Of a DNA stretch of 64,000 bases, positions 24,959-33,642 are shown piece by piece (position 1 is the stretch's first letter; the number at the start of each line of letters is the position of its first letter). The notes under the pieces were generated by a model, which did no database searches, was not told the DNA's origin, and saw only the letters and a program-made list of their open reading frames with translations. The translations under genes and the position numbers were made by a program. The DNA is from Candidatus Hermodarchaeota archaeon (GTDB lineage: Archaea; Asgardarchaeota; Lokiarchaeia; Sigyniarchaeales; SOKP01), in NCBI GenBank assembly GCA_048885925.1, contig JBHLLG010000008.1:1-64000 (forward strand), given 5' to 3'.

Positions 24959-24981
24959 AATCTATTTGTGTGTATAATTTT

Positions 24982-25605
24982 ATGAAACCATGGCTTTTTG
25001 ATTTATTGGCTTGCCCTATAGATAAATATTTTCCTCTAAAATTATACATTTTTTCTTTTGAGAATAAACCAGAAGAAATTCAATCTATTATTAATATTTA
25101 TAAAAACAGAGATATCAATTATATTAAAAGTGAAGAAATGGTTAATATTTCTCAAGAAAATAACGAATTTTTCATAAAAGATAACATAATTATCGAAAAA
25201 ACTAATCTTAACTCCTATCTTGAGCTAGTAATTTCGAGCATAGATGAATTTGAAAATATTTTTGATAAATCTAATAATCCCATTAGTGAAAAATGTATTA
25301 AAATTATGAAATCTGATATTAAATCAAAAATTAAAGGTTTTTCTCCAATATCTGATTTAAATAATTTTGAAAAGATCTTACCTGAATTATTTTTTATAAA
25401 TAAAATCAAATTAGAAATTGAAATCGAAGCTGGAATACTGGTTTGTCCTAAATGTAAACGCTGGTATCCTATTATTGAAACCATCCCACAAATGTTACCT
25501 GATAAATATCGTGATGAAAAAAATGAAATTGAATTTCTAAAAAAGCATAAAAATTTATTAGATGAAAAATTCTTTAATCAAGATCTTAAACCATTTAGGA
25601 TTTAA
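24982..25605 (+). CDS. trm112: Trm112-family methyltransferase activator with large insertion
   Basis: MKPWLFDLLACP...EIEAGILVCPKCKRWYPIIETIPQML. Confidence 0.85.
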   Translation: MKPWLFDLLACPIDKYFPLKLYIFSFENKPEEIQSIINIYKNRDINYIKSEEMVNISQENNEFFIKDNIIIEKTNLNSYLELVISSIDEFENIFDKSNNPISEKCIKIMKSDIKSKIKGFSPISDLNNFEKILPELFFINKIKLEIEIEAGILVCPKCKRWYPIIETIPQMLPDKYRDEKNEIEFLKKHKNLLDEKFFNQDLKPFRI

Positions 25606-25653
25606 AAATAACTCTATAAAGATCTCATAGATTCATCCTAAATTTAACCTATA

Positions 25654-25787
25654 AGCCCGGTGGTGTAGATTAATACATTTTTTTTTGTATTAAGCAAAAT
25701 GGCCAAGCATTTGGGGCTTTGAACCCCGCGACTATACTCCTCCCTGTAAGGTGTATAGCGAACACGGTTCGAATCCGTGCCGGGCTA
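25654..25787 (+). tRNA. tRNA-Gln(UUG) with two introns (25669-25699 and 25733-25762); CCA not encoded
   Basis: Acceptor AGCCCGG/CCGGGCT (A1-U72), D-stem GTGT/GCAT, anticodon arm TGGGG-CTTTGAA-CCCCG, T-arm CACGG-TTCGAAT-CCGTG; removing both inserts gives a canonical cloverleaf. Confidence 0.9.
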
Positions 25788-25903
25788 TTCAATTAATAAA
25801 TTAAATTTAAAAAATAAAAGCTTTAATAAATCACATATTTTAGTTTTTATCTTTAAATTAGTTAATTGAATTAGATTTCTTAAAAAAAAATTAAAAAATT
25901 TCA

Positions 25904-27286
25904 ATGAAATATCTCTCAGACCTAAATTGGAGTATTTTGGAAATTTTCTTTTTAATCATCATATTCATTATTGGATTTTTGGTCACCTACATTATTCTCC
26001 CTTACATAATAAAATTCATGAAAAGAAAAGGATACGTAGGTATTGATATACATAAAAATTCTAAACCTGAAATTTCTGAATCTGGTGGACTTGCAATAGT
26101 AATAGGTTTTACATTTTGTTCTTTTTTTTTAATTTTATTTTTTCCCGCTTTTTTTAACGAAATAATAGTTTTTCTTTTAACAGTTTTGCTAACTGGGCTT
26201 ATAGGATTTATTGATGACCGTAAAAAATTACGTTCACGATATAAAATAGCTTTATCAATATTTTCTGGTGGAATTATATTTTTAGCAAATATATATGGAA
26301 TTATAAACATATCATCTCCAACAATTCCTTTTCTGTATCAGACTAGATTGACAATTATATATCCATTTTTAATTCCAATAATAGTAGCAGTCTTTGCTAA
26401 TACAGTGAATATGTTAGAAGGATATAATGGTGAAGGATCAGGAACTTGTTTGATTGCAGTTTGTTTTTTATTTGTTTGTGGCATATTGTGGAATTCTGCT
26501 GAAGCAATAATTTTTACAGTTCCAGTAATAGCTGTTTTAATTCCTTTTTACTTATTTAATAAGTATCCTGCAAAAACTTTTCCAGGTGATATTGGAACTT
26601 TAAGTATGGGAGTAATGATTGCATGTATTATGCTATTTGGATCATTAGAAGTAGCTACATTTTGTGCATTTTTAATCCATATTTTAAATAGTTTTTATTA
26701 TATATATTCTGTGAAAGGATTTTTTGAAAGTAGTGATATTAGAGAAACTAAAGAGGACATCATTTTATTAGAAGATGATCAGATAAAAGCATCAGATCAG
26801 AAAGATGCTGTATTAACCTTACCTAGATTAATACTAGCTAAAGGACCCTTAAAAGAATCAAAATTGGTGAAAAATTTTTATGCTATCTCCTTAATATGTG
26901 GCTTTTTTTCGATACTCTCTATCTTATTAATACAATTCACATTGGGAATTTTTAATATTTACATCTTAATAATACCTTTCATTATTTTTTTAGCCCCTAC
27001 AATTTTAATTTTATATAAATTCCCCAGAATCAGAGGTATAATTCTTTTAATGATAATATTACTAATTTCTCTTTTATTATTCTTATTATTTATTAAATCT
27101 GTAATAATGCCTATTCCATTTCCTGATATTGACCTTAAAGTAATTCAAATCCCCGTTAATCTATTAATTTCATTAATTTTAGTAATCCCTATCTTATTAC
27201 TTTGGTATCTAATTACTATAAAATATTTCTGGACAGAAATAAATAAAATGAAAAAATTTGAAGCTAGACATAAAACTTTAACTTAA
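25904..27286 (+). CDS. UDP-GlcNAc:polyprenol-phosphate GlcNAc-1-P transferase (AglH/GPT, GT4-MraY family) with extra C-terminal TMs
   Basis: GIDIHK, ESGG, IGFIDD, ANTVNMLEGYNG, NKYPAKTFPGDIGT. Confidence 0.88.
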   Translation: MKYLSDLNWSILEIFFLIIIFIIGFLVTYIILPYIIKFMKRKGYVGIDIHKNSKPEISESGGLAIVIGFTFCSFFLILFFPAFFNEIIVFLLTVLLTGLIGFIDDRKKLRSRYKIALSIFSGGIIFLANIYGIINISSPTIPFLYQTRLTIIYPFLIPIIVAVFANTVNMLEGYNGEGSGTCLIAVCFLFVCGILWNSAEAIIFTVPVIAVLIPFYLFNKYPAKTFPGDIGTLSMGVMIACIMLFGSLEVATFCAFLIHILNSFYYIYSVKGFFESSDIRETKEDIILLEDDQIKASDQKDAVLTLPRLILAKGPLKESKLVKNFYAISLICGFFSILSILLIQFTLGIFNIYILIIPFIIFLAPTILILYKFPRIRGIILLMIILLISLLLFLLFIKSVIMPIPFPDIDLKVIQIPVNLLISLILVIPILLLWYLITIKYFWTEINKMKKFEARHKTLT

Positions 27287-32940: not shown

Positions 32941-33642
32941 TAAGGAAATTATGAACTTTCTCAATCTGTAAAATTATTATCGTGCAAATAGTAAAATGCA
33001 TAAGTAAAATTCTATTTTGATCTATTTACAACAATAGTTTTTAAGATTTAATTGGTATGTGTTTTAATGAAAATTATACGAATTAAATTATGAAGAATCG
33101 ATGTCATGACTTTTTTAAAGATTAATTAATTAAAATTATACTTTTGGATAACAGAAATGATTTTTCTATATTTTATTTGAAAAAATCCAGAAATAGCTAA
33201 ATCTTGATCTTATGCATAACAAACCATTTCAATACTCAAAATTCAAAATAGAGAGATATTAAATAGAATAAATTCTTAGAAAAAATTTATTCGGAATAAA
33301 AGTTGAAGGTTAAAATCGGTATTCTATATTTAAAAAAGTTTTAAAAAAATTAAGATTTAATATGGAATTATATTAAAAAATTAGAACATCAAATAAGATA
33401 ATCTCAATAAAAAAGTAAAGAATAATCTCATAAAACCTCTATTATGCTGTAAAATTTAAAGTCACACAGTTAATATTTTTATATATATTTAAAAGACTGT
33501 TTATATGGATGAGTTCAATGTCCCGTTAATTTAACAATATTATTATTCAATAGAATACTTTATAAAGGATCACTCTAGATATTGTTATTAATTGTCTCCC
33601 AAAAACTTTTAAATTACAAGAAATTGGTTTATATAGGGTATT

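Follow-up and report, generated by a model that had tools for sequence, protein, structure and literature searches.

A tRNA-Gln(UUG) gene with two relaxed, non-canonical introns in a Loki-type Asgard archaeon

In the window, the whole stretch of 64,000 nt that was analyzed (positions 1-64000 of contig C8 of genome G000), we identified a tRNA-Gln(UUG) gene of 134 nt with two introns on the forward strand at 25654-25787. This is a real tRNA-Gln gene of an AT-rich Asgard archaeon (Promethearchaeota, Loki-type). It is very probably functional and present in a single copy, with two introns of the relaxed bulge-helix-bulge (BHB) type that would be cut out by the endonuclease EndA and whose flanking exons would be joined by RtcB. 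The G000 assembly comprises 3.9 Mb in 181 contigs with 29% G+C and is 95% complete. The gene lies between two open reading frames on the + strand, 24970..25605 and 25904..27286. Its coordinates were checked against the sequence and by script, and it is arranged as follows:

25600..25611, + strand: TATA-like AT-rich stretch (ATTTAAAAATAA) that shares bases with the stop codon of the preceding reading frame and lies some 45 nt before the 5′ end of the mature tRNA; a candidate promoter element of the archaeal type
25654..25668, + strand: exon 1, consisting of the acceptor 5′ strand (1-7), positions 8-9, the D-stem 5′ strand (10-13), A14 and G15, as assigned by the ARAGORN cloverleaf after in-script splicing
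25669..25699, + strand: intron 1, 31 nt, at 15/16 in the D-loop
25700..25732, + strand: exon 2, consisting of the remainder of the D-loop, the D-stem 3′ strand, the complete anticodon arm and a 4-nt variable loop up to C48
25733..25762, + strand: intron 2, 30 nt, at 48/49
25763..25787, + strand: exon 3, consisting of the T arm (49-65), the acceptor 3′ strand (66-72) and the discriminator A73, as assigned by ARAGORN and by closure of the T arm and acceptor stem

The 3′ end does not encode CCA. The anticodon arm (25712-25728) is intact, with a 5-bp stem and a loop of 7 nt at 25717-25723 that carries the anticodon TTG at 25719-25721; this loop is continuous, hence there is no intron at 37/38. The two introns directly follow G15 (25668) and C48 (25732), the bases that form the tertiary Levitt pair in the mature tRNA.

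With both segments cut out in script, the remaining 73 nt were recognized by ARAGORN as tRNA-Gln(ttg). Element for element, this spliced product lines up with the tRNA-Gln(CUG) that the genome encodes without introns at C14:52889-52961; both share an A1-U72 acceptor pair, the D stem, a D-loop of 9 nt, a variable loop of 4 nt and a discriminator A. In archaea, A1-U72 and A73 are glutamine identity features. A previous reading of the DNA from its letters alone (the sequence-only reading) had arrived at the same identity, at an uninterrupted 37/38 site and at intron coordinates, hairpins and bulges that all match the sequence and our script. It had also cautioned that standard scans may miss this gene, which proved correct: the unspliced stretch gave no ARAGORN call, even in intron mode, and neither ARAGORN nor Rfam at gathering thresholds reported any tRNA in the entire window. 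When Rfam matches with E-values up to 10 were admitted for 25550-25900, the tRNA model scored just 13.5 bits in a partial match to the 3′ part, next to chance matches. Among these, a 15-bit match of the C/D-box RNA sR4 over intron 1 was discounted because the intron is just 31 nt long.

To place the introns independently of any motif, we compared the gene with its orthologues. BLAST with the 134 nt against 40 related genomes located the orthologous locus in genomes of the same genus, and scanning the GTDB species representatives for the middle-exon pattern added 75 loci, nearly all titled Promethearchaeota or Promethearchaeia (= Asgard). The reference spliced in script was then aligned gap-tolerantly to 95 loci, yielding 69 distinct gene sequences; the same upstream gene was found at all 20 loci checked for synteny. 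By intron content, the distinct sequences are distributed as follows:

D-loop (15/16) and 48/49 introns: 14
D-loop, 48/49 and T-loop introns: 3
D-loop and T-loop introns: 8
D-loop intron only: 5
48/49 intron only: 4 (two re-assigned by eye from the alignment)
T-loop intron only: 27
no intron: 5
truncated: 3

Over the orthologues, intron lengths are 29-31 nt at 15/16, 30 nt at 48/49 and 29 nt in the T-loop. Intron 1 is missing at exactly the predicted junction in L018, L020 and others, and intron 2 likewise in L013-L020 and others. In L018 and L020, which lack both, the exons abut as predicted (AG/TGGCC and CGAC/CACGG). Because any shift would alter the mature sequence, both junctions are exact and motif-independent, and the intron-less orthologues thus fix the positions 15/16 and 48/49 that had been proposed from the window alone.

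The history of the two-intron form was followed in a maximum-likelihood tree of the protein encoded upstream (19 rows, a single gene, midpoint rooting; L013 was dropped because its reading frame is cut). Eleven of the 12 loci with the 48/49 intron group together with a support of 95/89, G000 being the first to branch, and two loci with the T-loop intron only form another group (99/97). This shows that the two-intron form has been stably inherited within a clade of at least 11 species, while the tree gives no direction of change.

Some further features of the orthologues were recorded. Many of them (L007, L008, L009, L012-L015, L017, L020 and others) have C33 in place of the near-universal U (CCTTGAA vs CTTTGAA); the gene in the window has the usual T33. 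Four loci titled Thor-, Odin- or Hodarchaeota (L044, L055, L063 and L084) have gene sequences identical to those of genomes that GTDB places in the genus of the window, and these labels therefore look unreliable; L034, titled Thorarchaeota, has a distinct gene sequence. The locus L042 (DATKTW010000090.1) is titled a Nanopelagicaceae bacterium MAG and bears an Asgard tRNA exon, probably through mis-binning.

Intron 1 possesses a perfect inner hairpin (h′) of 8 bp, formed by 25670-25677 (TTAATACA) and 25686-25693 (TGTATTAA), and 3-nt bulges at 25667-25669 (AG^A) and 25698-25700 (AA^T). Its central helix, 25663-25666 with 25694-25697, is paired at three of four positions (U.G, G-C and U-A, followed by a G.A mismatch). 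The stem of intron 2, ATAC/GTAT, comprises four consecutive base pairs (25734-25737 with 25753-25756) and belongs to a hairpin that extends to 25734-25740 with 25750-25756, with six pairs over seven positions and one U.U mismatch. The bulges here, again of 3 nt each, are at 25731-25733 (AC^T) and 25761-25763 (AA^C), and the central helix, 25727-25730 with 25757-25760, is also paired at three of four positions, the G.A mismatch lying beside the 5′ bulge. Hence, neither intron has the fully paired 4-bp central helix of the strict hBHBh′ motif, nor its outer exon-exon helix h of at least 2 bp: h is 0 bp at both, as it is in all 31 D-loop introns and all 21 introns at 48/49 in the comparison. What both introns do have are the elements of the relaxed HBh′ class as defined in a passage of PMC5829648, namely a central helix H, a 3-nt bulge at the cut and an inner helix h′. 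The description as a relaxed BHB with three of four central pairs, likewise made from the letters alone, is therefore accurate for both.

To estimate how often such structures arise by chance, we drew 200,000 random boundaries, 29-31 nt apart, from this genome. A central helix with three of four pairs alone was found at 17.6% of them, in combination with an inner helix of at least 4 bp at 0.46%, and with one of at least 8 bp at 0.0165%. Taken as a whole, the motifs of the two introns go beyond what would be expected by chance. Since 17.6% of random boundaries show it, a three-of-four central helix alone is weak evidence; the weakness of the relaxed class as evidence is also raised in a part of the preprint by Goswami et al. 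2026 (bioRxiv 10.64898/2026.10.13.758758).

From these structures we infer the following maturation path. Transcription would give a precursor of 134 nt plus any flanking bases, with one short intron after G15 in the D-loop and another after C48, where the variable loop meets the T stem. Each intron would fold into its own hairpin h′, and the four intron bases preceding the last two would pair with four exon bases located two bases upstream of the 5′ cut, that is, with the D-stem 5′ strand in the case of intron 1 and with bases 42-45 in the case of intron 2. Both cuts of each intron would thereby fall within 3-nt bulges of a relaxed bulge-helix-bulge (HBh′), and EndA would cleave after the second base of each bulge. 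In this genus, the enzyme would be built from a crenarchaeal-type catalytic subunit with the specific loop and a second, probably structural, paralogue. The acceptor stem (exons 1 and 3) and the D stem (exons 1 and 2) would keep the exons together until RtcB ligates them, and CCA would be added afterwards.

A serious alternative, which we nevertheless consider unlikely, is that splicing is real but the enzyme reads the inner hairpin and one bulge (HBh′ or bulge-helix-loop), or that intron 2 is presented in a shifted register that spares the anticodon stem. This reading draws on the consistently missing outer helix, on the outermost central pair of intron 1, which is unpaired in 21 of 30 sequences, and on the innermost central pair of intron 2, unpaired in 15 of 20. 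Moreover, the A. pernix EndA with its specific loop cleaves HBh′ and hBH substrates, according to a section of PMC5829648. It also draws on the minimum free energy (MFE) fold (-48.3 kcal/mol, z = -3.82). There the acceptor, anticodon and T arms are preserved along with the hairpins of both introns, but intron 1 has no central helix and the 3′ end of intron 2 is paired in another register. The MFE fold and RNAalifold both pair C25729:G25760, G25730:C25759 and C25732:G25758, and RNAalifold likewise leaves out the central helix of intron 1. Because the thermodynamic fold departs from the BHB register, the pairing register seen by the enzyme is a model. Against this reading, all four central pairs are formed in the BHB register in several orthologues (L010, L015, L017, L034, L088 and L091 for intron 1; L004, L032, L068 and L093 for intron 2), and the orthologues retain the bulges AG^N, AC^N and, in most cases, AA^N. 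In L033, C25729:G25758 is replaced by U-A, a change that agrees better with the BHB register than with that of the MFE fold. We favor the relaxed BHB with its central helix as the substrate.

The components for such a reaction were sought in the genome. A homologue of the EndA alpha subunit is encoded at C22:7621-8214 (198 aa; PF01974 with 101 bits, and PF02778). Among PDB structures it matches the A. pernix catalytic subunit 3p1z_B best (E 5.5e-38), and other close structures are S. tokodaii 2cv8 and P. aerophilum 2zyz_B, which are catalytic subunits of crenarchaeal heterotetramers. The alignment to 3p1z_B starts from residue 18 and spans the Crenarchaea-specific (L1) loop, where ‘INKPR’ is opposite ‘VEKPR’ and a Lys is opposite A. 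pernix K44, which a figure legend of PMC5829648 singles out as the key residue. By these alignments, the EndA of G000 is a crenarchaeal-type catalytic subunit with the specific-loop lysine. Of 23 genomes of the same genus, 19 encode a second EndA paralogue of about 205 aa, as do 14 of 16 genomes of the same order. In a relative, it is 34% identical to alpha and has a Ser opposite the His that we take to be the catalytic His of EndA; this paralogue is probably structural (beta-like). Searches of the G000 assembly with the Pfam models and with the relative's paralogue as the query returned C22:7621-8214 only, without the second paralogue, for which a gap in the 95% complete assembly is the simplest reading. 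The typing of EndA that the sequence-only reading had suggested as a check thus succeeded for the alpha subunit, with its specific-loop lysine, while the second paralogue was not found in this assembly. RtcB is encoded at C12:26362-27669.

Within the 14 distinct two-intron orthologues, the introns vary and the exons are invariant except for positions 16 and 33, with exon 1 unchanged in all 14. Despite this variation, the intron helices are maintained. Counted on the structure that we had specified, 91.9% of the cells in the helices of intron 1 are paired (31 sequences, 30 distinct), compared to 28-60% in slid controls, and 85.4% in those of intron 2 (21 sequences, 20 distinct), compared to 16-53%. 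Changes on both sides occurred in seven of eight pairs of h′ in intron 1 and in five of eight in intron 2, and in neither case was the observed covariation score reached by any of 500 shuffles. Because the sequences are related, the shuffles overstate covariation, and the slid controls and compensatory pairs are the sounder measures. Judged from this pattern, the tRNA-Gln(UUG) copy is under purifying selection across species.

The demand for this tRNA was estimated from codon usage. Of the 16,183 Gln codons in the 952 open frames that reach 400 codons or more, 13,400 (83%) are CAA. A scan of G000 for UUG anticodon arms returned no credible arm other than that of the window gene, and BLAST of the 134 nt against G000 gave no other exon match apart from tRNA-Gln(CUG). 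Together with the share of CAA codons, this indicates that the gene is needed. A second, intact tRNA-Gln(UUG), which in the sequence-only reading would have pointed to a pseudogene here, was thus not found in the 95%-complete assembly by BLAST, tRNA census or UUG-arm scan. None other having been found, we regard the gene as probably single-copy in G000, with the provision that the census recovered just 39 tRNA genes, which leaves room for a second Gln(UUG) with an interrupted anticodon loop. Two other candidates were rejected: a ‘tRNA-Gln(ttg)’ called by ARAGORN at C10:49886-50014 results from the wrong parsing of a different two-intron tRNA, probably Arg(GCG), and a match of the UUG-arm scan at C9:42573 is a T arm read on the opposite strand.

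The census also allowed us to ask how common such interruptions are in this genome. ARAGORN found 12 compact tRNA genes in G000. Scanning for T arms closed by an acceptor stem gave 41 candidates, of which those on C57, C77 and C171 were judged false; the remaining 38 comprise 11 compact genes and 27 that are longer than a compact tRNA. Including the compact gene on C112, which was found by ARAGORN only, about 27 of 39 tRNA genes are interrupted, which makes the window gene typical of its genome. At least eight genes need two or more insertions and there are about 0.9-1.0 insertions per tRNA gene, both figures being rough, since the motif-free cloverleaf parser behind them gives approximate insertion boundaries (it misplaced those of the window gene) and was used for rough counts only. 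Two of its parses are:

C3:15256-15386: tRNA-Thr(UGU) with introns in the D-arm and T-loop and none at 37/38
C24, about 33096-33257 (reverse-complement coordinates), reverse strand: tRNA-Asn(GUU) with three insertions

In two tRNA genes outside the window, the insertion lies just behind the acceptor strand and this 7-nt strand is preceded at a short distance by a second copy: at C106:731-750 the acceptor strand GCAGACG is present twice, 13 nt apart, and at C59:15661-15694 GCTCACA lies 27 nt before GCCCACA. The tRNA-Gln(UUG) gene has no upstream second copy of its 7-nt acceptor strand. Beyond the window, C8:83692-83811 contains a candidate tRNA-Sec with the anticodon TCA in a perfect arm, a long variable region and about 34 extra bases near its 5′ part, which ARAGORN mis-parsed as tRNA-Pro with a 1335-nt intron.

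These results bear on the possibility that 25654-25787 is a decaying tRNA pseudogene that received two insertions and lost its processing, which we consider very improbable. It would explain why standard tools fail to recognize the gene, why a search of sequencing runs listed no RNA run containing the locus and why no spliced RNA appeared when four sequencing runs (X20, taken as RNA by guess, and X2, X5 and X10) were assembled at the locus. A single low-depth contig (25641-25787) came from X20. It represents the unspliced gene of a relative and has its end precisely on the discriminator base, 25787; it could stem from a precursor or from carried-over DNA, and no use can be made of so weak a signal. 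In contigs from X2 and X10, which are DNA, exon 1 lies directly before 25700; these derive from relatives lacking intron 1 and do not reflect splicing. However, a pseudogene is difficult to reconcile with exons that are near-invariant across species next to introns that drift with compensatory changes, with the role as the sole UUG decoder found for the prevailing Gln codon, with a genome in which most tRNA genes are interrupted in the same way, and with the well-supported clade in which the two-intron form was kept. A functional gene with two spliced introns accounts for all of these. That a GC-rich intergenic stretch mimics a cloverleaf once two arbitrary pieces are removed can practically be dismissed: two freely chosen deletions do often yield some cloverleaf-like sequence, and the motif-free parser gave a slightly different, lower-quality parse of the window gene, but the junctions are set by intron-less orthologues instead of being freely chosen and the product is colinear with the second tRNA-Gln of the genome.

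The sequence-only reading had described multi-intron tRNAs as best known from Thermoproteales. Reportedly, multiple non-canonical BHB introns in the tRNA genes of this order were described by Sugahara in 2008 and by Fujishima in 2010. The window gene resembles these in having several introns per tRNA gene, spliced by EndA there and presumably here, in the relaxed motifs and, probably, in the dependence on an (alpha-beta)2 EndA with the Crenarchaea-specific loop. It differs in belonging to another phylum, and in Thermoproteales the introns of different tRNAs are often similar in sequence (transposition). Such similarity is rare in Asgard archaea, as stated in a passage of bioRxiv 10.64898/2026.10.13.758758. 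The background given in the sequence-only reading is outdated, as multi-intron tRNAs have been described for Asgard archaea as well in parts of three publications (PMC11291895; bioRxiv 10.64898/2026.10.13.758758; PMC5829648). For Asgard archaea, sections of Kaneta et al. 2018 (PMC5829648) describe both disrupted tRNA genes and an (alpha-beta)2 EndA that carries the L1 loop, and an excerpt of Valentin-Alvarado et al. 2024 (PMC11291895) gives introns in 92-95% of the tRNA genes of Atabey-/Freyarchaeia, often non-canonical and multiple. Goswami et al. 2026 (bioRxiv 10.64898/2026.10.13.758758) state in their main text that 30% of intervening sequences, mostly those in the D-arm, escape annotators and that gains were repeated, with 0.91 insertions per gene in non-focal Asgard families; the rough 0.9-1.0 of G000 is close to this value.

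As far as these portions of the literature go, the published Asgard introns are alike to those of the window gene in phylum, in length (about 20-30 nt), in non-canonical positions, many of them in the D-arm, and in the occurrence of several per gene; they too are missed by standard annotators and show repeated presence and absence among close relatives. The published work, by the same portions, centers on Atabeyarchaeia, Freyr- and Jordiarchaeaceae, whereas the window gene is Loki-type, and the main text of Goswami et al. 2026 (bioRxiv 10.64898/2026.10.13.758758) names neither Loki-/Promethearchaeia nor tRNA-Gln. A single-intron parallel is found in a passage of PMC5829648 on the Methanopyrus kandleri pre-tRNA-Glu(UUC), which has an HBh′ intron at 20b/21 in the D-loop in addition to a canonical intron. 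Both cases share a relaxed D-loop HBh′ intron, a substrate class for which cleavage has been demonstrated experimentally; the window gene differs in having its introns at 15/16 and 48/49 and no canonical intron. The same design recurs in the T-loop intron at 59/60 of the same tRNA-Gln gene in related species: its 29 nt comprise a single base, a hairpin, four bases that pair and two that belong to the bulge. In contrast to the relaxed introns of the window gene, which lacks the T-loop intron, it has a strict hBHBh′ with all four central pairs in 35 of 38 cases and the 5-bp T stem as outer helix. Heavy interruption of tRNA genes in Asgard archaea is thus already published, the window gene is a further case, and it reveals no new mechanism.

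We tentatively suggest, as possible but somewhat doubtful, that one Loki-type genus maintains a single-copy essential tRNA-Gln(UUG) with three introns of near-identical format (29-31 nt, at 15/16, 48/49 and 59/60) in seven of eight presence/absence combinations, and that the two in the window represent a minimal class without outer helix and usually with three central pairs, stable in a clade of at least 11 species. If this is true, the Asgard EndA must accept a substrate defined essentially by an inner hairpin and two bulges, and the gene would offer a natural series from which the substrate range of EndA could be measured and the loss and gain of introns dated.

Among the by-products, the orthologue series with its motif-independent junctions is the most useful: intron callers could be benchmarked on these junctions, and substrates for probing the specificity of Asgard EndA could be designed from them. 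Because the gene is invisible to ARAGORN and to Rfam at the gathering threshold, automatic annotation would miss the main Gln decoder and list the organism as lacking tRNA-Gln(UUG), although CAA is by far its most frequent Gln codon. The gene is a well-documented addition to the picture that Asgard archaea tolerate many relaxed, non-canonical tRNA introns.
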